A DNA stretch of 64,000 bases from Mobula hypostoma (lineage: Eukaryota). This document shows positions 14,059 through 54,900 of this stretch, one piece after another. The first letter of the stretch is position 1. Each line of letters starts with the position of its first letter. The notes beneath the pieces are model-generated. The model made no database searches, was not told where the DNA came from, and saw only the letters and a list, made by a program, of their open reading frames with translations. Both the position numbers and the translations under genes were made by a program. Location: assembly GCF_963921235.1 (NCBI RefSeq), contig NC_086097.1:57910001-57974000 (forward strand), read 5' to 3'.

Positions 14059-14603
14059 ATAGACAATAGACAATAGACAATAAGTGCAGGAGTAGGTCAT
14101 TCGGCCCTTCGAGCCAGCACCGCCATTCACTGTGATCATGGCTGATCATCCACAATCAGTATCCAGTTCCTGCCTTCTCCCCATAACCTTTGATTCCGCT
14201 ATCTTTAAGAGCTCTATCCATCTCTTTCTTGAAAGCATCCAGAGACTTGGCCTCCACAGCCTTCTGGGGCAGAGCATTCCATATATCCACCACTCTCTGG
14301 GTGAAAAAGTTTTCCCTCAACTCCGTTCTAAATGGCCTACCCCTTATTCTTAAACTGTGGCCTCTGGTTCTGGACTCACCCACCAGCGGGAACATGCTTC
14401 CTGCCTCCAGCGTGTCCAATCCCTTAATAATCTTATATGTTTCAATAAGATCCCCTCTCAGCCTTCTAAATTCCAGAGTATACAAGCCCAGTCACTCCAA
14501 TCTTTCGACAGATTCGAAGAAGGAGTCTGAGAGTCTGAGTGGGAGTGCCGAGAAAGAGATTTTTGAAATTTTCGTTATTTTTTTTTCTCCAACGGCTTTC
14601 TGA

Positions 14604-14660
14604 GAGGCGGGACTGCGCAGGCGTGTGACGTCGGGCAGTGCAGTGCGGCAGATTTAAAAG
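14604..14660 (+). promoter_or_regulatory. Candidate internal Pol II promoter of the CR1 5' UTR
   Basis: Clustered GC box (ggcggga), NRF1-like tgcgcaggcg, CRE-like tgacgtc and tttaaaa. Confidence 0.45.
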
Positions 14661-14823
14661 GAACAAAGCCTCATAGAGCGGGCAGCGTAGTTTGCGGGCT
14701 GCGGAGTGAGCCGGGAGCAGAGTGAAGACTTAAGGGCTTCGGCTCAATGGGCTTAGGCGGAGATGGGCGAGGCGAGGAAGGTTTGACATTCATTTTCTGT
14801 TGCTATTTGAGGAGAGGGGCAGT

Positions 14824-15759
14824 ATGAGTGTGAGGGCAGTTTGCTGTTCTCGGTGTCGGATTTGGGAGGCCCTGGAGTCTCCAAGCCTCCCAGACGTCTA
14901 CATCTGCGCCAAGTGCATCGAGATACAGCTCCTAAGGGACCGCGTTACGGAACTGGAGCTGCAGCTCGATGACCTTCGTCTGGTCAGGGAGAGCGAGGAG
15001 GTGATAGAGAGGAGTGTAAGGCAGGTGGTCACGCCGGGGCCACGGGAGGCAGACAAGTGGGTCACGGTTAGGAGGGGGAAGGGGAAAAGTCAGGTGATGG
15101 GGAGTACCCTGGTGGCTGTTCCCCTTAACAACAGGTACTCCTGTTTGAGTACTGTTGTGGGGGACAACTTACCCGGGGGAAGCGACAGTGGCCGTGCTTC
15201 TGGCACAGAGTCTGGCCCTGTAGCTCAGAAGGGTAGGGCAAGGAAGAGGAGGGCAGTTGTGATAGGGGACTCGATAGTAAGGGGGTCAGATAGGCGATTC
15301 TGTGGACGCAGTCCAGAGACCCGGATGGTAGTTTGCCTCCCTGGTGCCAGGGTCCGGGATATTTCTGATCGTGTCCAAGATATCCTGAAGTGGGAGGGTG
15401 AGGAGCCAGAGGTCGTGGTACATATAGGTACCAATGACATAGGTAGGAAAAGGGATGAGGTCCTGAAAGGAGAATATAGGGAGCTAGGAAGGGAGTTGAG
15501 AAAAAGGACCGCAAAGGTAGTAATCTCGGGATTACTGCCTGTGCCACGCGACAGTGAGAGTAGGAATGTGATGAGGTGGAGGATAAATGCGTGGCTGAGG
15601 GATTGGAGCAGGGGGCAGGGATTCAAGTTTTTGGATCATTGGGACCTCTTTTGGCGCAGGCGTGACCTGTACAAAAAGGGCGGGTTACACTTGAATCCTA
15701 GGGGGACCAATATCCTGGCAGGGAGATTAGCGGGGGCTACTGAGGTGACTTTAAACTAG
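14824..15759 (+). CDS. CR1 ORF1p: Cys-rich zinc finger, leucine zipper and SGNH esterase
   Basis: Uninterrupted ORF; CSRC...CAKC, heptad leucines, VIGDS, VHIGTND and GGLH (the DxxH Asp is Gly here). Confidence 0.93.
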   Translation: MSVRAVCCSRCRIWEALESPSLPDVYICAKCIEIQLLRDRVTELELQLDDLRLVRESEEVIERSVRQVVTPGPREADKWVTVRRGKGKSQVMGSTLVAVPLNNRYSCLSTVVGDNLPGGSDSGRASGTESGPVAQKGRARKRRAVVIGDSIVRGSDRRFCGRSPETRMVVCLPGARVRDISDRVQDILKWEGEEPEVVVHIGTNDIGRKRDEVLKGEYRELGRELRKRTAKVVISGLLPVPRDSESRNVMRWRINAWLRDWSRGQGFKFLDHWDLFWRRRDLYKKGGLHLNPRGTNILAGRLAGATEVTLN

Positions 15760-18700
15760 AATGGTTGGGGGGTGGGAATCAAATTAAAGAGGCTAGGCGT
15801 GAGGAGGTTAGTTCACAACAGAGGGATGGGAACCAGTGCAGAGAGACAGAGGGGTGTAAAGTGAGCGTAGAAGCAAAAAGTACAAAGGAGAAAAGTAAAA
15901 GTGGCAGGCCGACAAATCCAGGGCAAGCATTAAAAAGGGCCACTTTTCAACATAATTGTACAAGGGCTAAGAGAGTTGTAAAAGAGCGCCTGAAGGCTTT
16001 ATATGTCAATGCAAGGAGCATTCGTAATAAGGTGGATGAATTGAAAGTGCAGATTGTTATTAATGATTATGATATAGTTGGGATCACAGAGACATGGCTC
16101 CAGGGTGACCAGGGATGGGAGCTCAACGTTCAGGGATGTTCAATTTTCAGGAGGGATAGACATGAAGGAAGGGGAGGTGGGGTGGCATTGCTGGTTAAAG
16201 AAGAGATTAACGCAATAGAAAGGAAGGACATAAGCCGGGAAGATGTGGAATCGATATGGGTAGAGCTGCGTAACACTAAGGGGCAGAAGACACTGGTGAG
16301 AGTTGTGTACAGGCCACCTAACAGTAGTAGTGAGGTCGGAGATGGTATTAAACAGGAAATTAGAAATGTGTGCAATAAAGGAACAGCAGTTATAATGGGT
16401 GACTTCAATCTACATATAGACTGGGTGAACCAAATTGGTAAAGGTGCTGAGGAAGAGGATTTCTTGGAATGTATGCGGGATGGTTTTTTGAACCAACATG
16501 TCGAGGAACCGACTAGAGAGTAGGCTATTCTGGACTGGGTTTTGAGCAATGAGGAAGGGTTAATTAGCGATCTTGTCGTGAGAGGCCCCTTGGGTAAGAG
16601 TGACCATAATATGGTGGAATTCTTCATTAATATGGAGAGTGACATAGTTAATTCAGAAACAAAAGGTTCTGAACTTAAAGAGGGGTAACTTTGAAGGTAT
16701 GAGACGTGAATTAGCTAAGATAGACTGGCAAATGACACTTAAAGGATTGACGGTGGATATGCAATGGCAAGCATTTAAAGGTTGCATGGATGAACTACAA
16801 CAATTGTTCATCCCAGTTTGGCAAAAGAATAAATCAAGGAAGGTAGTACACCCGTGGCTGACAAGAGAAATTAGAGATAGTATCAATTCCAAAGAAGAAG
16901 CATACAAATTAGTCAGAGAAAGTGGCTCACCTGAGGACTGGGAGAAATTCAGAGTTCAGCAGAGGAGGACAAAGGGCTTAATTAGGAAGGGGAAAAAAGA
17001 TTATGAGAGAAAACTGGCGGGGAACATAAAAACGGACTGTAAAAGCTTTTATAGATATGTAAAAAGGAAAAGACTGGTAAAGACAAATGTAGGTTCCCTG
17101 CAGACAGAAACAGGTGAATTGATTATGGGGAGCAAGGACATGGCAGACCAATTGAATAATTACTTTGGTTCTGTCTTCACTAAGGAGGACATAAATAATC
17201 TTCCAGAAATAGTAAGGGACAGAGGGTCCAGTGAGATGGAGGAACTGAGTGAAATACATGTTGGTAGGGAAGTGGTGTTAGGTAAATTGAAGGGATTGAA
17301 GGTAGATAAATCCCCAGGGCCAGATGGTCTGCATCCTAGAGTGCTTAAGGAAGTAGCCCAAGAAATAGTGGATGCATTAGTGATAATTTTTCAAAACTCG
17401 TTAGATTCTGGTCTAGTCCCTGAGGTTTGGAGGGTGGCTAATGTAACCCCACTTTTTAAAAAAGGAGGGAGAGAGAAACCGGGGAATTATAGACCGGTTA
17501 GCCTAACGTCGGTGGTGGGGAAACTGCTGGAGTCAGTTATCAAGGATGTGATAACAGCACATTTAGAAAGCGGTGAAATGATCGGACAAAGTCAGCATGG
17601 ATTTGTGAAAGGAAAATCATGTCTGACGAATCTCATAGAATTTTTTGAGGATGTAACTAGTAGAGTGGATAGGGGAGAACCAGTGGATGTGGTATATTTG
17701 GATTTTCAAAAGGCTTTTGACAAGGTCCCACACAGGAGATTAGTGTGCAAACTTAAAGCACACGGTATTGGGGGTAAGGTATTGGTGTGGGTGGAGAATT
17801 GGTTAGCAGACAGGAAGCAAAGAGTGGGAATAAACGGGACCTTTTCAGAATGGCAGGCGGTGACTAGTGGGGTACCGCAAGGCTCAGTGCTGGGACTCCA
17901 GTTGTTTACAATATATATTAATGACTTGGATGAGGGAATTAAATGCAGCATCTCCAAGTTTGCGGATGACACGAAGTTGGGTGGCAGTGTTAGCAGTGAG
18001 GAGGATGCTAAGAGGATGCAGGGTGACTTGGATAGGTTGGGTGAGTGGGCAAACTCATGGCAGATGCAATTTAATGTGGATAAATGTGAAGTTATCCACT
18101 TTGGTGGCAAAAATAGGAAAACAGATTATTATCTGAATGGTGGCCGATTAGGAAAAGGGGAGGTGCAATGAGACCTGGGTGTCATTATACACCAGTCATT
18201 GAAAGTGGGCATGCAGGTACAGCAGGCGGTGAAAAAGGCGAATGGTATGCTGGCATTTATAGCGAGAGGATTCGAGTACAGGAGCAGGGAGGTACTACTG
18301 CAGTTGTACAAGGCCTTGGTGAGACCACACCTGGAGTATTGTGTGCAGTTTTGGTCCCCTAATCTGAGGAAAGACATCTTTGCCATAGAGGGAGTACAAA
18401 GAAGGTTCACCAGATTGATTCCTGGGATGGCAGGACTTTCATATGAAGAAAGATTGGATGAACTGGGCTTGTACTCGTTGGAATTTAGAAGATTGAGGGG
18501 GGATCTGATTGAAACGTATAAGATCCTAAAGGGATTGGACAGGCTAGATGCAGGAAGATTGTTCCCGATGTTGGGGAAGTCCAGAACGAGGGGTCACAGT
18601 TTGAGGATAGAAGGGAAGCCTTTTAGGACCGAGATTAGGAAAAACTTCTTCACACAGAGAGTGGTGAATCTGTGGAATTCTCTGCCACAGCAAACTGTTG

Positions 18701-18798
18701 AGGCCAGTTCATTGGCTATGTTTAAGAGGGAGTTAGATATGGCCCTTGTGGCTACAGGGGTCAGGGGGTATGGAGGGAAGGCTGGGGCGGGGTTCTGA
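15750..18798 (+). pseudogene. CR1 ORF2p (APE endonuclease and RT) with three lesions
   Basis: NARS, GITETW, GDFN, SDH, FADD; TAG at 16521, +1 A near 16661-16664, TGA at 18169. Confidence 0.95.
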
Positions 18799-21365
18799 GT
18801 TGGATGATCAGCCATGATCATAATAAATGGCGGTGCAGGCTCGAAGGGCCGAATGGCCTACTCCTGCACCTATTTTCTATGTTTCTATGTTTCTATATGA
18901 CAGTCCCGCCATCCCAGGAATTAACCTTGTGAACCTACGCTGCACTCCCTCAATAGCAAGAATGTCCTTCCTCAAATTTGGAGACCAAAACTGCACACAG
19001 TACTCCAGGTGTGGTCTCACCAAGGCCCTGTACAGCTGCAGAAGGACCTCTTTGCTCTTATACTCAATTCCCCTTGTTATGAAGGCCAGCATGCCATTAG
19101 CTTTTTTCACTGCCTGCTGTACTTGCATGCTTTCTTTCAGTGACTGATGTACAAGAACACCTAGATCTCGTTGTGCTTCCCCTTTTCCTAACTTGACTCC
19201 ATTTAGATAATAATCTGCCTTCCTGGTCTTACCACCAAAGTGGATAACCTCACATTTATCCACATTAAACTGCATCTGCAATGCATCTGCCCACTCACCC
19301 AGCCTGTCCAAGTCACCCTGCATTCTCATAACATCCTCCTCACATTTCACACTGCCTCCCAGCTTTGTGTCATCAGCAAATTTGCTAAGGTTACTTTTAA
19401 TTCCCTCATCTAAATCATTACTATATATTGTAAACAGCTGCGGTCCCAGCACTGAACCCTGCGGTACCCCACTGGTCACCACCTGCCATTCCGAAAGGGA
19501 CCCGTTAATCGTTACTCTTTGTTTTCTGTCAACCAGCCAATTTTCAGTCCATGTCAGTACTCTGCCCCCAATACCATGTGTCCTAATTTTGCCCACTAAT
19601 CTCCTATGTGGGACTTTATCAAAGGCTTTCTGAAAGTCCAGGTACACTACATCCACTGGCTCTCCCTCATCCATTTTCATAGTTACATCCTCAAAAAATT
19701 CCAGAAGATTAGTCAAGCACAATTTCCCCTTCATAAATCCATGCTGACTTGGACCAATCCTGTTACTACTATCCAGATGTGTCGTAATTTCATCTTTTAT
19801 AATTGACTCCAGCATCTTTCCCACCACCGACATCAGGCTAACGGGTCTATAATTCCCTGTTTTCTCTTTTCCTCCCTTCTTGAAGAGAGGGACAACATTA
19901 GCCACACTCCAATCCACAGGAACTGATCCTGAATCTATAGGACATTGGAAAATGATTACCAATGCATCCACAAATTCTAAAGCCACCTCCTTAAGTACCC
20001 TGGGATGCAGACCATCAGGTCCCGGGGACTTATCAGCCTTCAGACCCAACAGCCTATCCAACACTATTTCCTGCCTAATATAAATTTCCTTCAATTCATC
20101 CATTATCCTAGGTCTTTTGGCCACTATTACATCTGGGAGATTGTTTGTGTCTTCCCTAGTAAAGACAGATCCAAAGTACCTTTTCAACTCGTCTGGCATT
20201 TCCTTGTTCCCAATAATAAATTCACCCGCTTCTGTTTTCAAGGGCCCAATTTTAGTCTTAACTATTTTTTTCCTTTTCACATACCTAAGGAAGCTTTTAC
20301 TATCCTCCTTTATATTCTTGGCTAGTTTACCTTCGTACCTCATTTTTTCTCCGCATATTGCCTTTATAGTTACCTTCTGTTGCTCTTAAAAGTTTCCCAA
20401 TCCTCCGGCTTCCCACTCGTCTTTGCTATGTTGTACTTCTTCTCTTTTATTTTTATACTGTCCATTACTTCCCTTGTCAGTCATGGCCTCCCCTTACTCC
20501 CCTTAGGATCTTTCTTCCTCTTTGGAACGAACTGATCCTGCACCTTCCACATTATTCCCAGAAACACTTGTCATTGCTGTTCCACTGTCATCTCTGCTAG
20601 GGTATTGTTCCATTGAACTTTGGCCAGCTCCTCCCTCATAGCACCATAGTTCCCTTTGTTCAACTGTAATACTGACACCTCCGAGTTTCCCTTCTCCCTC
20701 TCAAATTGTAGATTAAAGCTTATCATATTATGGTCACTACCTCCTAATGGCTCCTTTACCTCGAGGTCCCTGATAAAATCCGGTTCATTGCACAACACTA
20801 AATCTAGAATTGCATTCTCTCTGGTAGGCTCCAGTACAAGCTGTTCTAAGAATCCATCTCGGAGGGACTCCACAAACTCCCTTTCTTGGGGTCCAGTACC
20901 AACCTGATTCCTCCAGTCTACCTACATGTTGAAGTCCTCCATAACACCTGTAGCATTACCTTTGCGACATGCCAATTTTAACTCTTGATTCAACTTACAC
21001 CCTACATCCAGACTACTGTTTGGGGGCCTGTAGATAACTCCCATTAGGGTCTTTCTACCCTTAGAATTTCTCAGTTCTATCCATACTGACTCTACGTCTC
21101 CTGATTCTATGTCCCCCTTGCAAGGGACTGAATATCATTCCTCACCAACAGAGCCACCCCACCCCCTCTGCCCATCAGTCTGTCCTTTCGATAGGACGTA
21201 TAGCCTTGAATATTCATTTCCCAGGCCCTGTCCACTTGAAGCCATGTCTCTGTTATTCCCACAACATCATACTTACCAATTTCCAACTGTGCCTCAAGCT
21301 CGTCCACAGTAGCAGGAAGCCCCTCGGAGAGTGAGCCCCTGGGCACCGAAGCAGGGAGAGGTGTC

Positions 21366-21426
21366 GGGAAACTTAGAGGAGACCCAGTGAGGGAATGGCC
21401 TGGTGTCTCTGGGGGAACACATTCCC
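21366..21426 (+). promoter_or_regulatory. -1 ribosomal frameshift signal (G GGA AAC plus H-type pseudoknot) at the gag-pol junction
   Basis: Heptamer 21366-21372 in gag phase; stem 1 21378-21387/21400-21410; stem 2 gggaatg 21391-21397 with cattccc 21420-21426; pol lies in the -1 frame. Confidence 0.8.
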
Positions 21427-22700
21427 AGCAATGTACCAAGGAACCCCCAAAAGTGAAAGACTCTATTCCTGAAGGCTTAGTGGGACCATGCTCCAGTGTG
21501 TCACTAGGGATAGAGGGTATTTATGCTAAAGCCATACTCGACACCGGGTCGCAGGTCACATTGTTGTACCGTTCGTTTTACAACTGGTGTCTGAAATATT
21601 TACCATTGACACTTTTCAGGGCACTGGACATCTGGGGTCTCAGTGCTGGTGATTATTCATACGAAGGTTATTTGTCAGTGAAGCTGGAGTTCCCGGAGCC
21701 CGATGTGGGACTGTTGGAAGTCCTTGATACATTAGTGCTGGTTTGTCTGGATCCCACTGTTTCAATCCTGGTGGGGACCAACACCCCTCTTGTGAAGAGG
21801 CTCATGGGAGCCTGCAAGGAGAAGGCTGGCAAGAGCCGTCTGGGGACATCGTCTGTGCTCCCAGTGGTTCGAGCTGCTTTTGAGGAAGTGTGTGGCTGCA
21901 TTGGGCCGGATACCGAATTTAAACGATGGACTGTGTGGTTCACCCAGTTGAAGCCAATGGTGATACGGCCTGGGGAAGTAGCAAGAGTGATGAGGACCCC
22001 CCAATTTCCCGGAGTGCCTGAGGGTGAGGTTCTCTTAGTGGACGCTCCGGAAGACCACGAGGGAGAGTCGGGATTTCCTGCTGGGGTACTGGTGAGGCCC
22101 GAATTGCAGAAGCCCTCGGTTGTACAGGTGAGCAGGATGGCAGTGATTGTCAGGAACACTACGAAGAGGCAGGTCACCTTCAAGCGGGGGATGCCCCTGG
22201 CGCACCTGTTCCCAGTGATGGTAACGTCTAGTGTCCCTGTGAGCCGGAGTCTGTCGCCCTCTGAGAAAGACTATCCCACGCACAAGTTGGAATTTCTGGC
22301 GTTGAAATGGGCGGTGCTGGATAAGCTGAGTGACTACCTCTACAGGGCCAAGTTTGAGGTGAGGACGGACAACAACCCCCTAACTTATATTCTGACGTCA
22401 GTGAAACTGTATGCCACAGGCCATCGGTGGTTGGCAGCGTTGTCTGCCTGATTTCAGCCTGAAGTCCCAGCTGGGAAGCTGGAACATTGATGCTGATGCT
22501 TTGTCCCAATGGGTGCATGAGGGCCTGGACAGGGACGAGGAGTGGGAGAGCATTCCCGCCCCAGGGATGAAGGTCATGTGTCAGTTTGCCATCACCATGA
22601 AGGTAGAGGAAAAGAGGGGCAGGATCGAGTGGTAGATCAATTGGGAACTTCTGATGACACTATTCCCCAAGTTTACTGTAGCCTGACTGTTCTGAAGACA

Positions 22701-27345: not shown

Positions 27346-30300
27346 CACTGGTGGCGCCAGAGATTTTTTCTTGCTGGTGCTACGGAGGGGCTGAATTATT
27401 CAGTGATGGTGCTGAGGGATGCACTGTATGGTAATATGTATTCACAAGGCCAGATGCGTGGCGTTCAAAAGTCAGTTTCAAGCATTATGTGCCTACTATA
27501 AACGCCTCTGTTGATTCACAAGCAACAGCAATTGATAGATCTAATATAGAATTGAACTGTGACAGTGTCAGCAGCATCGGAGACAAGCCGGGCTACACGG
27601 AGCATAAACAAACAAACCAACAGAGCATCCGACCCACAGCGCACAACGTGAATCACGCACCAATCCCACAATCAGCGTCAAATGCATGCTTTTCAACTGA
27701 AAAACACAACACTAACCCACAATGTCCACTGCTATTCACATTACATAGACAGACAATGCCAAAAGATACATTGTGATTAAAGTCAAATAAGGCAAACAGC
27801 AGATGTAAGGCTTTACCAGGAGTTGGACAAATCGTACTCTGACCATGTAATACCTCAATTAATTCGGCTACCGAATTTAAAACAAAAATCACCGCTTGGA
27901 AGTCTAAGCAAAACCAGTAGGCTTAATAGCAGTAAATGTAATATTTTAGGATTTGCAGGAAACATAAGGACTATGGGGGATCCATCACAAAATAATAATT
28001 GTAATCAGCATTAGTCTAGGCACAAATTTTTAAAAAATCAACTGCACTCACCATTGATGCTTTCAGAGAAGCACAATCCGTCTGTTGTTGTGATTGGTGG
28101 CAAAAACATCAATGATTTTCTGGATGTCAAGTGCTTTGGTCCTCTGGCTGTTTATGGCCAACAGGGCCAAGTTGCTGTTCCGAGCATCGCTGCTGCTATT
28201 CCTTACATAATCTTTGAGGTGTCTGAGACGAGAAACTCCGTTCGCAAGAGTCAGATGTCACAGGCAGAGTCAGTGATATGCAGATTAGATTGTATAAATC
28301 TATAAATGCATCGCGGTAGGGTCTCATTAGAGCTAGAAATTCCACTGTGTCATTCCCTGTCTGTCCTTGCTTTTGTTTTGTTTCCAGCAGATGCCGAACC
28401 TGATGTAGCTCTGCAGTCAGGTTCACTTCAGTCACCCCATAGTATTGGGCCATTGGCCAAAGACAATTCTTGTCTAGTAAGGGCTTGTGTTTGGGACTCA
28501 ATGCTGAGACTCCAGTCAGAACACCCCCAGTCTCAAATGAGAACTGCCTTTTCATTTCAGTCAGAAGTCTGTCTATAACCGGATAGAAACAGTGCTTGCG
28601 AAGGTCATCAGAGGATGTGACAGGTATATGTTCAGTTTGGGCCTCAACAACAAAATCATGTAGGCAGCAGGGTGGCTGGGCCTGTCTCCTTTCATGTGGT
28701 CTGCTCTGTATACCGGCCTTGATGCACAGTTCCCTAGCTCTTGCCTGGATTTCACTCCATGATTCCTCTCCCTGTTTTGCTGAGAGTGCATCAATAACAG
28801 ACTGAGCCAAGTCCACAGCGGATGAAAGCTCCAAACTGGGAGATTGTAGCTGGTCTGACATGAACTTGGTGACTCAGAATAAATCCTCAAACAGAGTGAG
28901 AAGTAAAGCAAACTGCTCGTCAATCAGTCCATTTACAGCTCTGGCCTCCGTTTTCCTCTGTGCATTTGGTTGACCCATAATATCCTGTAGTGTAGCTAGA
29001 ATGGCAGGGAGTGATTTCCTCATAGCCCACAAAACTGTATACTGCCATGCCCAGCGTGTATCTGACAATTTCTTCAACTCCACGGGCAGTGCCGTTGATT
29101 CCAGTTTTCTCTGTTCCTTCATGAAAAGGTCGTGGGCAACAGAGTTTGAAAAGAAGTTGTAAAGCAGCTGCACAGTTTCAAAAAACTCACTCGCCCGCTT
29201 GTTGTACATTGCTCACAACATTCACTAAAACAAGGTTAAGTCTGTGAGCATGACAGTGTATATATAATGTCTGTGGAACCTCTTTCCTGAACCTCTCTTG
29301 TACCTCGTTATTGCACCTGGACATCACTGCTGCCCCGTCATAACACTGAACTATACATGCGTTCTTATCAATAACACACTGGGCAAGAGTCCGTTCAATG
29401 CTTTTAAGAAGCGACTCTGTGTCCAACCCTTCTGCTGGAGTGAAGTGCAAGAATTCTTCAAGCACTGTTTTGTTATTCAGATACCGCACCACCACTGATA
29501 TTTGCTCCTTTTTACTCAAGTCTTTGCTTTCATCCACCATGATCACAAAATGTCCAGCCTCCTTGATTTCTGCACTTATCTGACGTCTGACCACATCTGC
29601 CATAATACCCATAACCTGCTGGGAGGGGGGAGAAGATGGCGGCACGACGGCAGAGCACAGGGCCACTTTGGTGATGATGCCTGTTATCTGTCAAGTCGGG
29701 GACCGTGCACAATTCTGATTTGATGGAGACAGACGTGAGAGCACAGTGGAACATCTGGAAAATTTCTGAAATGTCTGCTTTGCTGCCGCTGCTACTGTGT
29801 GGCAACCGGAATCGCCGGAGCTGAAGTCCCCAAAATCCTCGGCTTCGCTTGTTTCAGCTGCCGGGGACAGGTTGAAGGCGCTCAGCAGAGGATGGCGCTC
29901 GGGAGGCTGTATTGGAGAGGCTGGTCGGAAGTTGGAAGTTTTCGGACGGATGGACTCAGTGTTGGCTGTGGTCGGCTGCTTCCAAGGTATTGGCAAGTTG
30001 ACGGTGCCTGGAGGTTTATGGCAGGGAGTTTCTCCCTTTTGCCGCCTGCTATTGGGGACTCAGGAGTCGATGGATTCGGGGAATTTGAGACTTTTTTTTT
30101 ACTGTGCCCATGGTCTGTTCTATATCAAATTATGGTATTGCTTTGCACTGCTGTAACTATATGTTATAATTATGTGGTTCTGTCAGTGTTAGTCTTTGGT
30201 CTGTCCTGTTTTCTGTGATACCACTCCGGAGAAACATTGTATTATTTTTTAATGCATGTATGCATTTCTGAATGACAATAAAAGAGGACTGAGTGTTCTC

Positions 30301-30649
30301 ATGATCTAAATTTCATTTTGGATATCATGATGGGTGTTTTTTGCATTTCCAGGATTGCCCTCTATTTGTTTTAGCTACAGTTTTATCAAACTGCCCAATT
30401 ACACTGAGCAACTCAACAAAGTTTCCCCTATTGCCAGATCCATCGTCCTCCCGGTGTCCTTGCTGGGCAATGCCTTGGCACGCAGTATAGCATAGAGACT
30501 CAACTACTGCTCTCATATACTCACGATTTTCTTGAATAATCTTTGCATGTCCTTCATCAAGCATATTTCGCAATCTTGAACTGTCTTGTTTTTTCAATCT
30601 GAATTTGGCCCATGCCTCCATAGCAAACTTATGAGCTGCACTTACATGG
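27346..30649 (-). mobile_element. hAT transposon (ZMYM1-like/DUF4371 transposase pseudogene ~28066-30649), 5' end deleted
   Basis: GHRE..GNFVELL, VDESKDLSKKEQ, CYDGAAVMS, HCHAHRLNL, DTRW, LPVTSDSCERSFS; one TIR-like end cactggtggcgccag; tgatatg on both flanks. Confidence 0.9.
29621..30308 (+). mobile_element. Non-coding ~690-bp retroposon, copy 2, inserted in the hAT transposase
   Basis: Colinear with copy 1; splits the transposase at QNEI|MGIM. Confidence 0.82.
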
Positions 30650-30703
30650 TGATATGTTAATCCTAAGGAAATTAAAGTTGCTGACCTTCTCCACCAGAGG
30701 AAG

Positions 30704-33545
30704 TTAGACCATAAGACCATAAGATATAGGAGCAGGAATAGGGCATTTAGCCCATCGAGTCTGCTCCACCATTTCATTACGGCTGATCCATTTTCCTCTC
30801 AGCCCCAGTTTCCCGCCTTCGGCCCATATCCCTTCATGCCCCAACACTAATCAAGAATCTATCAACCTCTGCCTTAAATATACCCAATGACTTGGCCTCC
30901 ACAGACACCTGTGGCAACAAATTCCACAGATGAATCACTCTCTGGTAAAGAAATTCCTTCTTATCTTCATCCATAATAGACGTCCCTCAATTCTGAGGCT
31001 GTGTCCTCTAGTCTTAGACTCATCCATCACAGGAAATGTCTGCGCTACATCCACTTTGTTGAATCCTTTCAACATTCATGGGGTTATAGAAAAATTTTAC
31101 ATGGAAAAAGGACCTTTGGCCCATCTACTCCATGTCGAACCATTTAACTGTCTACGCTGGGACAATGGCCCTTGATACTCCTATCATCTATGTACTGATT
31201 CAAACTTCTCTTAAACGTTGAAGTTGAGATTTCATGCACCACTGTGCTGGCAGCTTGTTCCGCCCTTTCACAACTCTTTGATTGAGGAAGAGTCCCCTCA
31301 TGTTCCCCTTAAACTTTTCACCTTTCACCCTTAACCTACAACCTCGAGTTGTACTCCCACAAACCTCAGCGGAACAAGCCTGCTTGCATTTACCCGATCT
31401 ATACCCCTCATAATTTTTTATACCTCTATCAAATCTTCCTTCAACATTTTGTGTTCCAAGGAATAAAAGCCCTAACCTATTCCATCTTTCCTTATAACTC
31501 AGGTCCTCCTGGCCCAACCACGTCCTTGTAAATTTGTCTGTACTCTTTCAACCTTATTTACATCTTTCCTGTACGTAAGTGACCAAAACTGCACACAATA
31601 CTCAAAATTAGGCCTCACCAATATCTTACTCAATACCAACATAATATCCCATCTCCATACTCAATACTTTGATTTATGAAGGCTAATGTACCACCAGCTT
31701 ACTTTATGACCCTATCTACCTGTGATGCCACTTGCTATGATTTATTGACCTGTATTCCCAGATCCCTTTGATCTACCACATTCCTCAGTGCCCTACTGTT
31801 TTCTGAGGAAGATCTACCCTGGTTGGTCTTACCGAAGAGTAACACCTCGCACTTGTCTATGTTAAGTTCCATCTGCAATTTCTCAGCCTATTTATCTAGC
31901 TGGTCCAGATTCCACTGCAAATCATGGTAGTCTTCCTCACTGTCCACTACACACCCAATCTTGGTGTCATCCATGGATTGTTGATCAAAATGACAAACAA
32001 CAATGATCTCTGCACCACTTCACTAGTCACAGGCCTCCAGTCATTGAGGCAAACATCTACAACCACTCTCTGGCACAAAGCCAATGTCTAATCCAATTTA
32101 CTACCTCATCTTGAATGCCGAGTGACTGAACCTTCTTGGCCAACTTCCCATGTAGGACCTTGTCAAATGCCTTGCTGAATTCCATGTAGACTACATCCAC
32201 TGCCTTGCATTCATCAACTTTCCTGGTAACTTTTTCAAAAACTCTGAAAGATTGGTTAGACACAACCTACAATGCACAAAGCAATGCTGACTATCCTTAA
32301 TCAGTCCACATCTATAAAAATACTCACATATCCAGTCCTTTAGAATACCTTCCAATAACTTTCCCACTACTAATATCAGGCTCACCGGCCTATAATTTCC
32401 AAGTTTATTTTTGTAGACTTCCTTAAACAGCTGAATAAAATTGATTATCCTCTGATCCTATGGCACCTTACCCGTTACTAAGGCTGATTTAAATATTACT
32501 TTTAATGTCCCTGCAATTTCTTCACTTGCCTCCCACTGGGTCCAAGAAACAGTAATTTGCCTCAAAACAGCAAACACATCCTCCTCTGTAACCTCCAAGA
32601 AGTTGATGTCTCTTTGCCTCACTTCTATAGACTCTGTGTCTATCTTCTGAGTAAATACAGATGCAAAAAAAATGCAATTAAGATCTCACCAATCCCTTTT
32701 GCCCCCATGCATGGATAACCATTCTGATCTTCCAGAGTATCAATTTTGTTCTTAACATATCTGTAGAAGCCCTTAAGATTCTCCTTCACCTGTGTTTCAA
32801 TGAGATTCCCCATCATTCTTCTGAATTTAATGAGTACAAGTCCAGAACTATCAAATGCTCCTCATCTGGTAAGCCTTTCAACCTCAAAATCGTTTTTGTG
32901 AAACCTCCTTTGAACCCTCTCTGAAGCCTGCATATCCTTTCTTCGATAAGGGACCAAAAACTACTCTCGATACCCCAAGTGGCTTATAAGTCTCAACATT
33001 ACATCCTTGCTAATATATTTTAGTCCCCTAGAAATGAATGCTAACATTACACTTGCCTTCCTCACCATCGACTCAACCTGCAAATTAACCTTTCAGTCCC
33101 AAGTCCCTCTCTACCCCATATTTTTGAATTTTCTCTCCATTTAGAAAATAGTCTACGTTTTATTTCTTCTACCAAAGTGCATGATCATACACTTCCTGAC
33201 ATTGTGTTCCATCCGCCACTTCTTTGCCAATTCTCCTCATCCGTCTAAGTCCTTCTGTAGCCCCTCTGCTTCCTGCAAACTACCTGCCCCTCCACCTATC
33301 TTCGTGTCATCCACAAACATGACCACAAACCCATCAATTCCGTTATCCAAAGCATTGACATATAACGTAAAAAGAAGTGGTCCCAACACAGACCCCTATA
33401 GAACACCACCAGTCACCAGCAGGCAACTGGTAAAGGTTCCCTTCATTCCCCCTCTCTGCCTCCTGCCAATCAGCCAATGATTTATCCATGCTAGTATCTT
33501 TCCTGTCATACCATGGGCTCTTAATTTGTTAAGTAAATCTATGTG
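30704..33545 (-). mobile_element. Degraded CR1 (pieces ~30704-31077 and ~32791-33545)
   Basis: (ccataaga)n tail on the + strand; RT C-terminal sequence continues after a nested CR1. Confidence 0.8.
31078..32790 (-). mobile_element. Degraded CR1 of a second family, nested in the previous one
   Basis: VYMEFSKAFDK, VVGKLLEGIL; has its own 3' UTR. Confidence 0.82.
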
Positions 33546-43840: not shown

Positions 43841-46838
43841 CGTTGAGCTCCCATCCTTGGTCACCCTGGAACCATGTCTCTGTGATCCCAACTATATCAT
43901 ATTCATTAATAACTATCTGTACTTTCAATTCATCCACCTTGTTACAAATACTCCTTGCATTGACACACAAAGCCTTCAGGCTTGCTTTTACAACACTCTT
44001 ATCCCTTATACAATTATGTTGAAAAGTGGCCCTTTTTGATTTTTGCCCTGGATTTGCCTGCCTGCCACTTTTACTTTTCACCTTACTACTTTTTGCTTCT
44101 GCCCTCATTTTACATCCCTCTGTCTCTCTGCACTTGTTCCCATCCCCCTGTCACATTAGTTTAAATCCTGCTGAACAACAATAGCAAATGCTTCCCCTAG
44201 GACATTGGTTCCAGTCCAGCCCAGGTGCAGACTGTCCTGTTTGTAACGGTCCCATCTCCTCCAAAACTGTTTCCAATGTCCCAGAAGTTTGAATCCCTCC
44301 CTCTTGCACCATTTTTCAAGCCACGTATTCATCTGATATATCATAAGATCATAAGACCATAAGACAAAGGAGCAGAAGTCGGCCATTCGGCCCATCAAGT
44401 CTGCTCCGACATTTTATCATGAGCTGATCCATTCTCCCATTTAGTCCCACTCCCCCGCCTCCTCACCATAACCTTTGATGCCCTGGCTACTCAGATACCT
44501 ATCAATCTCTGCCTTAAATACACCCAGTGACTTGGCCTCCACTGCCGCCCGTGGCAACAAATTCCATAGATTCATCACCCTCTGGCTAAAAAAGTTTCTT
44601 CACATTTCTGTTCTGAATGAGCAGCCTTCAATTCTTAAGTCATGCCCTCTCATACTAGACTCCACCATCATGGGAAACAACTTTGCCACATCCACTCTGT
44701 CCATACCTTTCAAAATTCGAAATGTTTTTTCTAAACTCCAAGGAATACAGTCCAAGAGCAGACAAACGTTCCTCATATGTTAACCCTCTCATTCCCGGAA
44801 TCATTCTAGTGAATCATCTCTGTACCCTCTCCAACGTCAGCCCATTCTTTCTTAAATAAGGAGACCAAAACTGCCCACAGTACTCCAAGTGAGGTCTCAC
44901 CAGCACCTTATAGAGCCTCAGCATCCCATCCCTGCTCCTATACTCTATTCCTCTAGAAATGAATGCCAACATTCGCCTTCTTCACCACTGACTCAACCTG
45001 GAGGTTAACCTTAAGGGTATCCTGTATGAGGACTCCCAAGTCCCGTTGCATCTCAGAACTTTGAATTCTCTCCCAATTTAAATAATAGTCTGCCCGTTTA
45101 TTTCTTCTGCCAAAGTGCATAACCATACATGTTCCAACATTGTATTTCATTTGCCACTTCTCTACCCATTCTTCCAATCTATCCCTCTGCAGATTCTCTG
45201 TTTCCTCAGCACTACTGGCCCCTCCACCTATCTTCGTATCGTCAGCAAACTTAGCCACAAAGCCATCTATTCCATAATACAAATCATTAATGTACAATGT
45301 AAAAAGAAGCTGCCCCAACACGGACCCCTGTGGAAAACCACTAGTAACCGACAACCAACCAGAATAGGATCCCTTTATTCTCACTCTCTGTTTCCTGCCA
45401 ATCAGCCAATGCTCTATCCACATATGTAACTTTCCCGTAATTCCATGGGCTCTTATCTTGTTAAGTAGCCTCATGTGTGGCACCTTGTCAAAGGCCTTCT
45501 GAAAATCCAAATATACAACATCCACTACATCTCCCTTGTCTAGCCTACTTGTAATTTCCTCAAAAAACTGTAATAGGTTTGTCAGGCAGGATTTTCCTTT
45601 GAGGAATCCATGCTGAGTTCTGCCTATCTTGTCATTTGCCTCCAGGTACTCTGTAACCTCATCCTTGACAATCGACTCCAACAACTTCCCAACCACCGAC
45701 GTCAAGCTAACAAGTCTATAATTTCCTCTTTGCTTCCTTGCCCCCTTCTTAAATAGCGGAGTGATATTTGCAATCTTCCAGTCCTCCAGAACCATGCCAG
45801 AATCTATCGACTTTTGAAAGATCATCGCTAATGCCTCCACAATCTCCACAGCTACTTCCTTCAGAACACGAGGGTGCATTCCATCTGGTCCGGGACATTT
45901 ACCTACCTTTAGACTATTCAGCTTCCTGAGTACTTTCTCTGTCGTAATTGTGACTGCGCACACTTCTCTTCCCTGCCACCCTTGAGTGTCCGGTATACTG
46001 CTGATGTCTTCCTCAGTGAACACTGATGCAAAATACTCGTTCAGTTCCTCCGCCATCTCCTTATCTCCCATTACAATTTCTCCAGCATCATTTTCTATCG
46101 GTCCCATATCTACTCTCACCTGTCTTTTACTCTTTATATACTTGAAAAAGCTTTTAGTATCCTCTTTGATATCATTTGCTAGCTTCCTTTCAAAGTTAAT
46201 CTTTTCTCTCTTAATGACCTTCTTAGTTTCCTTTTGTAAGCTTTTAAAAACTTCCCAATCTTCTGTCTTCCCACTAATTTTTGCTTCCTTGTATGCCCTC
46301 TCCTTAGCTTTAACTTTGGCTTTGACTTCTCTTATCAGCCACGGTTGCATCCTTTTTCCATTCGAAAATTTCTTCTTTTTTGGAATATACCTGTCTTGCA
46401 CCTTCCTCACTTCTCGCATAAACTCCAGATACTGCTGCATTGCCGTCCTTCCCGCTAGTGTCCCTTTCCAGTCAACTTTGGCCAGTTCCTCTCTCATGCA
46501 ACTATAATTTCCTTTACTCCACCTCGAGCACATCACATTTCAGCTTCTCTTTTTCAAATTTCACAGTGAACTCAATGATGTTATGATCACAGTCCCCTAC
46601 AGGTTCCTTCACCTCAATCTCTCTAATCACCTCCAGTTCATTACACAATACCCAATCCAGTACAGCCGATCCCCTAGTGGGCTCAACAACAAGCTGTTCT
46701 AAAAAGCCATCTTGCAGACATTCTACAAATTCTCTCTCTTGAGCTCCAGTGCTGACCTGATTTTCCCAATCCACTCGCATGTTAAAATCCCGCACAATTA
46801 TCATAACACTGCCCTTCTGACAAGCCTTTTCTATTTCC

Positions 46839-52795: not shown

Positions 52796-54900
52796 TATAA
52801 GACCGTAGGTCATAAGACATAGGACATAAGATATAGGAGCAGAATTAGGTCACTTGGCCCAATGAGTCTGCTCCACCAATTCATCCTGGCTGATTCAATT
52901 TCCCTCTCAGTCCCAATCTCCTGCCTTCTTCCCGTATCCCTTCACGCCCTTACTAATCAAGAATCTATCAACCTCTGCCTTAAATGTACTCAATGACTTG
53001 GATTTCACAGCCAGCTGTAACAACGAATTCCACAGATTCACTACTCTCTGGATAAAGAATTTCCTCCTCATCTCCATTCCAAAAGGATGCCCCTCAACTC
53101 TGAAAGCTGAGTCCTCTAGTCTTAGAATCCCCCACCATAGGAAACATCCTCTCCACATCCACTCTATCGAGGTCTTTCACTATTCAATAAGTTTCAATGA
53201 GGTAACCCCTCATTCTTCTGAATTCCAGTGAGTAGAGGCCCAGAGCTATCAAACGCTTTTCATATGATAAGCCATTCAATCCTGAAGTCATTTTCTTGAA
53301 CATCCTTTGAACCCTCTCTGATATCAGCACATCCTTTCTTAGATAAGAGGCCCAAAATTGTGCCTCAACAGTGTTTTATAAAGCCTCAACATTACATCAT
53401 TGCTTTTATATTCTAGACCTCTGGAAATGAATGCTAACATTGTATTTGTCTTCCTCACCACCGAATTAACCTGTAAATTAACATTTAGGGAATCCTGCAC
53501 AAGGCCTACCAAGTCCCTTAGCACCTTAGTTTTTTAAATTTTCTCTTCATTTAGAAAACAGTCTACCCTTTTACTTCTTTGACCAAAGTGCATGATAAGA
53601 CACTTCCTGACACTATATTCCATCTGCCATGATTCAGTGACGCCCACAATGTCTTACAGGCTAATCTGTAAATGAGCTACCTTATTCCATATACTGTTTG
53701 CATTCAAATATAACACCTTCACTCTTGTATTCACCCTTTTTGATTTTGTCCTTCTTTTACATTGTAACTTATCCTTTTGACTGCAGTTATGCTCTTTCAA
53801 CAGACTCTCTTTCCTAGCAGTCTCAATACACACTCTCTCCATTTGGAAAACACCTATCTCATCCTCAGCACTATCACTCTGTTTTCCATCCTCCTGCCAA
53901 ATTAGTTTAAACCCTCCTGAACATCTCTAGCAAGCCTGCCCACGAGGATATTGGTCTCCCTTCGATTCAGGTGTAACCTGACCCTTTTGTACCTGGTGTA
54001 CCTTCCCCAGAAAAGATCCCAGTGATCCATAAAGCTGACCCCCTGCCTCCTGCACCAGTTCCTCAGCCACGCATTCACCTGCCAAATCATCCTATTCTTA
54101 ACCTCAATGGTGCATGGCATGGGCAGCAATCCAGAGATTACTACCTTGATGATCCTGTTTTCAGCTTTCTACCTAGCTCCCTAAAATCTCTTGTCAGGAC
54201 TTCCTGACATTGGTGCTAATATATACCAAGACTTCTGACTGCTCACGCTCCCCATTTAGAATGCTATGGACTCGATCTGAGACATCCCCTCAACAGTATC
54301 TATAGTGGTATACATATTATTGAAGGGAACAGCCACAGCAGTACTCTGCACTGGCTGTGCATTTGCTTCCTTCTCCTGCCAGTCACCCATTTACCAGTTT
54401 CCTGCAACCTAGGGATGACTACCTCCCTGTAGCTCCTGTCTATCACCTCCTCATTCTCCTGTATGAGTCGAAGGCCATCAAGCTCCAGCTCCAGTTCCTT
54501 AATACGTTCTCTGAGGAACTTCAGCTCAGTGCACCTGGTGCAGATGTGGTTATCTGGGAGGATGGAGGTCTCCCAGACTTACCACATCTCACACACAAAA
54601 CAAAACACGACCCGGAGCCACTCTCACTGCACTAACTGTGCTGTAACAGACGAGGAATGAAGAATTGAGAAGAAAAAGAGAAACTACCAGATACTTAATC
54701 TGACCAAAGCCTGATCAGCCAAGGCCACTCCAAACACTGATCGACTCACAATAATGGCTGCTCCACTTGCAGTTGTGTTATTTTTATTCAGCTTTTTTAA
54801 TGAATCCTGCTCAGTGATTGATCGCAGTCCAGCTCTGCAAAGTTCTGCCTTTTTAATCCTGAGTGAGGACCTGATTGGAAAGGTAGCTCTCTTCGCGTGC
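52795..54900 (-). mobile_element. Internally deleted CR1 (3' part ~52795-53630; ORF1 and ORF2 start ~53630-54660)
   Basis: RVVNLWNS; LYLNANSIWNK; DHWDLFWGR..LHLN..EGLN*; LEL zipper remnant. Confidence 0.85.

Follow-up and report, generated by a model that had tools for sequence, protein, structure and literature searches.

A conserved slippery heptamer at the end of ORF1 points to -1 frameshifting in CR1 retrotransposons

How does a retrotransposon translate its second open reading frame (ORF) when that frame offers no early start codon? How ORF2 is initiated in long interspersed nuclear elements (LINEs) is an open question (PMC3894237), and it is raised anew by a CR1 element of the ray Mobula hypostoma. 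The CR1 group is the dominant retrotransposon in most vertebrate species, according to a 2026 survey of vertebrate CR1-group elements (PMC13343379). The copy in question lies in a stretch of 64,000 nucleotides of contig NC_086097.1 (positions 57,910,001 to 57,974,000, forward strand; this whole stretch is the window, and all coordinates count from its first letter). Its ORF1 encodes an esterase and ends on the heptamer U_UUA_AAC, and its ORF2, with an APE endonuclease and a reverse transcriptase (RT), follows in the -1 frame. From the sequences compared below, we consider it probable that programmed -1 frameshifting on this heptamer yields a minor ORF1-ORF2 fusion.

The junction between ORF1 and ORF2

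The features that define the junction, here and in two other CR1 copies of the window, are the following.

14824-15759, forward strand: ORF1, 311 amino acids, with N-terminal Cys motifs and an SGNH/GDSL esterase; terminates T-L-N-stop
15741-15743, forward strand: TGA closing the -1 frame just 5' of the heptamer
15750-15756, forward strand: slippery heptamer U_UUA_AAC (DNA TTTAAAC), context acT TTA AAC TAG, X_XXY_YYZ in the ORF1 phase
15757-15759, forward strand: ORF1 stop, immediately 3' of the heptamer
15756-16001, forward strand: open -1-frame linker of 82 codons without AUG, between shift site and endonuclease
15767-15776, forward strand: G-run, a candidate stimulator, beginning 11 nt after the heptamer
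16002-18798, forward strand: ORF2 body, APE endonuclease and RT, from Pfam matches
44156-44165, reverse strand: second junction, gaT TTA AAC TAA, with a TAATG stop-start and then TGA
53902-53911, reverse strand: third junction, ggT TTA AAC TAA

Direct reading of the sequence bears out what a first-pass annotation had described at this place: the heptamer is in phase at the very end of ORF1, and the -1 frame is open from 15744, with its first ATG at 16395, codon 214 after the shift, so that 213 codons are free of AUG. Among six canonical heptamers in the element, the one at 15750-15756 alone is in the ORF1 phase. The longer motif TTTAAACTAR would be expected 0.37 times in the window but has three occurrences, a count that none of 100 shuffles reaches, and all three sites fall at ORF1 ends. 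The two others, on the reverse strand at 44159-44165 and 53905-53911, had also been noticed, and the -1-frame readings then given for them hold. One detail had been misplaced: the ATG of the peptide MRAEAK, assigned to the 53905-53911 copy, belongs to the 44159-44165 copy, which has in addition an in-frame ATG overlapping its stop. In the 53905-53911 copy the first -1-frame Met comes at codon 22.

To explain this arrangement, we envision that most ribosomes would translate ORF1 and then stop. While tRNA-Leu and tRNA-Asn occupy UUA AAC, a minority would slip one base back to UUU AAA and resume at CUA, perhaps stimulated by the adjacent stop and the G-run. These ribosomes would make an esterase-linker-APE-RT fusion at low level, as Gag-Pol is made. 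Tandem slippage makes CUA the first new codon, and because of this the junction should read T-L-N-L-E-W-L-G-G (in full T-L-N-L-E-W-L-G-G-G-N) rather than the TLN/KLEW trans-frame peptide first proposed.

Fixed codons at a variable ORF1 end

A metagenome scan with the ORF1 alignment yielded 28 CR1 loci that we take to be bird-type, from their likeness to bird-annotated proteins; 10 reach the junction, and the 18 that end earlier were dropped. Together with the three ray copies they form a set of 13 junctions, and the copy statistics rest on the window, these 10 loci and one alignment of public DNA runs. All 13 junctions have T just before the Leu codon, as the third base of a codon that stands for T, D, G, C, A or S. 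The Leu codon is TTA in 13/13, as against 17 of 150 Leu codons upstream (11%), and the Asn codon is AAC in 12/13, as against 12 of 39. In the 11 codons that precede, third positions agree in just 5-11 of the 13. A test for synonymous constraint at this spot had been suggested, and free variation is absent from the heptamer: the U_UUA_AAC class is conserved at synonymous sites. Three further ray-type subfamilies, read as loose-end consensuses from the public DNA runs, have TT/TTAAA at the matching coordinates, preceded by GGT, AGT or GCT. The slippery heptamer thus appears to have been kept at the end of CR1 ORF1 from rays to birds.

The surroundings fit a shift site. The ORF1 stop directly follows the heptamer in 11/13 junctions, and the -1 frame is closed by a stop at most two codons upstream in 9/13. 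Among the 11 junctions long enough, 9 reach the endonuclease in the -1 frame (7 open, 2 with one internal stop), through linkers of 36-87 codons. The alignment of public runs adds nothing here: no variant falls in 15734-15791 among the 40 rows listed, and this does not count as support because there are further rows and because the divergent subfamilies leave the alignment near 15720.

Could protein constraint and shared ancestry produce the same pattern? The ORF1 protein would need its C-terminal Leu-Asn and the ORF2 protein an N-terminal F-K-L, with the codons simply inherited. The C-terminal helix of ORF1 is in fact conserved, and the bird-type loci are 33-86% identical to one another over the 42 nt before the heptamer. 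Yet ray and bird-type sequences, only 24-55% identical over the same 42 nt, use the same heptamer codons, and F-K-L can be translated only through the -1 frame that is so often closed just upstream. More distant ORF1 proteins bear on the same point.

Switches between heptamer-compatible ends in distant relatives

Of the 112 ORF1 homologues compared, 70 have their C terminus at the homologous place. LN is the ending in 51 of those 70, from sharks, rays, Xenopus and bird-type sequences. Named teleost homologues, at 25-31% identity, have other endings, and 15 of 24 members of a distant ORF1 group, one of them named from crab, end in QGN, KGN, AGN or VGN. A wider set was built from the best 150 representatives at 50% identity, of which 107 end near the profile end. 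Asn is terminal in 74 of them: 55 xLN, 11 xGN, 3 xKN, 2 xEN, 2 xSN and 1 xDN. In the first three classes, a heptamer is possible only if the x codon has U, G or A, respectively, as its last base, and x is compatible in 54/55, 11/11 and 3/3. Where x is a residue with U- or C-ending codons only, it precedes LN 16 times and GN or KN never; residues with A- or G-ending codons only precede LN once and GN or KN 9 times. Of the 33 ends without Asn, 23 have xKN, xFF, xGF, xFL or similar within 18 residues, in a loose search that will find some by chance.

A quick maximum-likelihood tree of 96 esterase parts requires 24 label changes for 8 labels, some of them within clades: FLN among QGN (support 88), SGN beside three xKN (97), SLN among xFF/xGF (99) and SFF/SFL/TFL beside internal xKN (100). 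Leu, Gly and Lys differ in chemistry, and the feature that seems to unite them is an XXA codon before AAC. U_UUA_AAC, G_GGA_AAC and A_AAA_AAC are among the most shift-prone heptamers (PMC5009743). Synonymous-site conservation is seen in DNA for the U_UUA_AAC class, and class-preserving change to the other heptamers is suggested by the proteins. The interchange of Leu, Gly and Lys at position -2, and LN ends at offsets of up to 13 residues, speak further against protein constraint, which we regard as highly improbable. The frameshift interpretation offered in the first-pass annotation, by comparison, gains support both from the checks on the junction and from these switches.

Some sequences stand apart. 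A subgroup of the xGN clade (P0115, P0124, P0125 and P0126) ends in VSR, CRG or CSG, with no heptamer-compatible end, and may reach ORF2 by another route. Scans of viral contigs and plasmids gave no relatives, and a scan of genome contigs gave a single unrelated bacterial GDSL locus. CR1 ORF1 sequence also occurs in P0021, P0025, P0056, P0057, P0083 and P0266, database proteins that carry the name of a Pseudomonas hydrolase or of isoforms of ray genes (RPS24, TMEM204, ABHD14A, VSIG10L2); these are candidates for contamination, mis-annotation or exonisation.

Weighing frameshifting against reinitiation

Several observations weigh against the frameshift. The Fisher test on the residue before the dipeptide gives p 3e-6, a value inflated by kinship because control positions -5 and -7 also give low values (0.0016 and 0.035). 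Ten of the 107 representatives have no compatible end even in the loose search, and the codons, -1 frames and element type of the xGN, xKN and xFF classes are deduced from proteins. The bird-type loci are related to one another, and two of the 11 junctions (L014 and L022) are out of frame. Folding of the segments 5-65 and 5-95 nt downstream gave no stable nested structure (z +1.9 to -2.1 over 23 folds), by a method that does not cover pseudoknots. The first-pass annotation had seen no clear stimulatory pseudoknot either, and the pseudoknot or stem-loop that marks canonical -1 sites 5-9 nt downstream was not found at the junction. Finally, an in-frame AUG lies within three codons in 5/13 junctions, and codon 3 is NTG in 7 of the 10 bird-type copies.

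These last counts lead to the chief rival, termination-reinitiation, in which the ribosome would stop at the end of ORF1 and restart a few bases on at an AUG or near-cognate codon, releasing a free ORF2 protein as in SART1 or L1; the conserved block would then be a reinitiation signal. ATG stands at codon 3 in L001, L002, L004 and L007, GTG or TTG in three more, and the 44159 copy has its TAATG. Reinitiation has been reported for SART1 (PMC5972666) and proposed for L1 (PMC3894237). However, an AUG at or overlapping the ORF1 stop, of the SART1 type, is not conserved: the 15750 copy has none throughout its long AUG-free stretch, and codon 3 is TGG, TGA, TCG or TCC in 6/13 junctions. A conserved ORF2 start codon, named at the outset among the findings that would speak against a shift, was not seen. 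Reinitiation also leaves unexplained the exact in-phase XXXYYYZ and the switches among Leu, Gly and Lys with their matching upstream residue. We judge it unlikely as the general route, though a more serious competitor than protein constraint; in bird families where an AUG closely follows the stop, it may coexist with frameshifting.

A stimulator without a folded structure?

If ribosomes do shift here, what would stimulate them? The G-rich tract that had been seen downstream recurs across the set: 11 nt after the heptamer stands GGGGG in 11 of the 12 junctions long enough and GGAGG in the twelfth, while GGGGG occupies 0.3-0.6% of positions in five elements. At two third codon positions within the run, all 12 junctions have G although the residues encoded differ. 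This hints at a signal in the RNA, although part of the pattern may come from a Gly-rich peptide. Prediction of a two-tier G-quadruplex succeeds only if a mismatch is allowed. Frameshifting can be activated by proteins, as by nsp1beta/PCBP, and stimulation by G-quadruplexes is described only in synthetic constructs (PMC5009743). We considered, and rejected, base pairing between the G-run and the C-rich 3' end: its -20 kcal/mol tied for second in the scan, and 35%, 47% and 74% of 500 shuffles equalled it. Separately, L004, L007, L008, L012 and L014 show a modest hairpin about 27-55 nt after the heptamer, too distal for a usual stimulator and not seen in the ray copies.

The same tract bears on a third explanation, that splicing or transcriptional slippage yields an ORF2 mRNA and the motif is a splice or slippage signal. 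One base of the G-run, at 15767, is missing in 29 contigs of run X1 (3.6% of depth) and in 6 of X5, as slippage might suggest. But these are DNA runs, the loss would throw ORF2 out of the -1 frame, and the heptamer holds no run longer than 3. As for splicing, in two bird proteins (P0265 and P0268) gene prediction has linked the two ORFs close to the junction, while a pyrimidine tract is missing and the AG of TAG is replaced by TAA in two ray copies. P0265 and P0268 were among five long matches found in looking for a natural in-frame ORF1-ORF2 fusion among 8000 scored candidates; none of the five is clean, these two look like gene-prediction joins, and the result is weak either way. Splicing or slippage is, to our mind, about as implausible as protein constraint.

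The element and its surroundings

Two features complete the description of the element.

14515-18895, ends approximate, forward strand: full-length CR1 LINE copy, inside an older antisense CR1
18845-18895, forward strand: 3' hairpin and short tandem repeat tail, common to six other 3' ends compared

Its assignment to the CR1 clade follows from domains and 3' end. ORF1 has an esterase domain (Lipase_GDSL_2, E 1.9e-16) and aligns with bird-type ORF1s, which makes it an esterase-type ORF1. In ORF2 an APE domain (Exo_endo_phos, E 1.3e-10) precedes the RT (RVT_1, E 1.9e-32), the order of the CR1 clade. The 3' hairpin with microsatellite, and without poly(A), is read directly at 18845-18895 and is a CR1 feature (PMC8665684). 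On the choice between CR1 and L2, the RT is 45% identical over 507 amino acids to a stork CR1-type protein, in a single pairwise match. The copy itself is damaged in ORF2, with a stop at 16521-16523, a frame break near 16660 and a stop at 18169-18171.

The older antisense CR1 survives as host pieces at 14059-14506 and 18887-20328, and the window as a whole is LINE-rich ray DNA; the top ORF1 match, at 94%, is a Mobula protein. When 15761-15815 (forward) is set against 44100-44155 (reverse), the 15750 copy holds 54 nt more at the junction, a frame-neutral difference, and is then about 90% identical to the 44159 copy; a decayed second G-run lies at about 15820-15830. The difference looks like a new ORF1-plus-junction module placed before an older linker with the frame preserved. 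Within the esterase, position 15680 is G in this copy and A in 99.7% of aligned depth (run X1), changing the Asp of the D-x-x-H motif to Gly; the family retains this motif, and bird-type ORF1s are without the His. Elsewhere, a 403-codon frame at 21240-22451 (forward), with an aspartic-protease-like DTG motif and a pol-like end, interrupts a CR1 and is apparently a fragment of a long terminal repeat (LTR) retrotransposon. Three open frames at 28196-30798 (reverse) look to us like pieces of a hAT-type transposase.

Significance and comparison with known systems

If the frameshift is true, the CR1 ORF2 protein would be redefined as an ORF1 fusion, and the annotation of intact copies would change because no ORF2 AUG would be needed. 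A very abundant nuclear-encoded -1 frameshift would be added to vertebrate genomes, one that points to a stimulator without folded structure. The ORF2 translation question becomes directly testable in the commonest vertebrate LINE group. More speculatively, and with clearly less confidence than in the shift itself, vertebrate and crustacean LINEs with an esterase ORF1 might share an ancient Gag-Pol-like -1 shift that swaps U_UUA_AAC, G_GGA_AAC, A_AAA_AAC and U-rich heptamers. Its driver in vertebrate CR1 might be, instead of folded RNA, the stop next to the heptamer together with a linear G-run that keeps a 10-nt spacing and is either bound by protein or forms a G-quadruplex; the transposition enzyme would be an esterase-APE-RT fusion tethered to the ORF1 protein coat or to membranes.

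Has this been proposed before? Vertebrate CR1 with an esterase ORF1 (type IVB, PMC4120745; PMC13343379) have the same Cys-motif and esterase ORF1, APE-RT ORF2, 3' hairpin and microsatellite. The word 'frameshift' occurs in neither paper, nor do 'slippery' and 'translation' in PMC13343379. PMC5009743, as excerpted, ascribes L1 ORF2 to unusual initiation and does not contain the term CR1. The literature compared also includes PMC11835228, PMC13405545 and PMC10275272. Among the full-text matches listed we found no frameshift proposal for CR1; an earlier mention in the 1997 chicken and turtle CR1 papers, in Kapitonov and Jurka 2003 or in Repbase notes is possible.

Among known systems, SART1 (UAAUG) and mammalian L1 resemble CR1 in having a bicistronic LINE RNA with low ORF2 output, and TAATG is present in one of the ray copies, while in four bird-type copies an AUG lies 2 nt past the stop. 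Their reinitiation gives a separate ORF2 protein, whereas in CR1 the heptamer is conserved and the AUG is not. In Penelope-like elements, according to a figure legend, ORF1 can be set apart by a frameshift with a pseudoknot (PMC8557442), and Penelope and RTEX are further groups in which ORF1 can be an esterase (PMC3905857); unlike CR1, Penelope-like elements have a different RT and endonuclease class, and a pseudoknot is present. A further parallel is found in the APE-type non-LTR elements TRE5-A and TRE3-A of Dictyostelium, both of which need a -1 frameshift for ORF2 according to the figure legend of a review (PMC5911963). They live in another host kingdom and have another ORF1 type. The -1 shifts of coronaviruses and of gag-pol in retroviruses and LTR elements share with CR1 the X_XXY_YYZ phase and a structural ORF followed by a polymerase in the -1 frame, and the heptamer is that of infectious bronchitis virus (PMC5009743). 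In contrast to them, CR1 is non-LTR and has no protease, its 0-frame stop is immediate, and no pseudoknot or stable hairpin was found at the usual distance downstream. The CR1 junction would thus work like a retroviral or coronaviral -1 site minus the downstream structure, a familiar class of mechanism with a stated precedent in another LINE.

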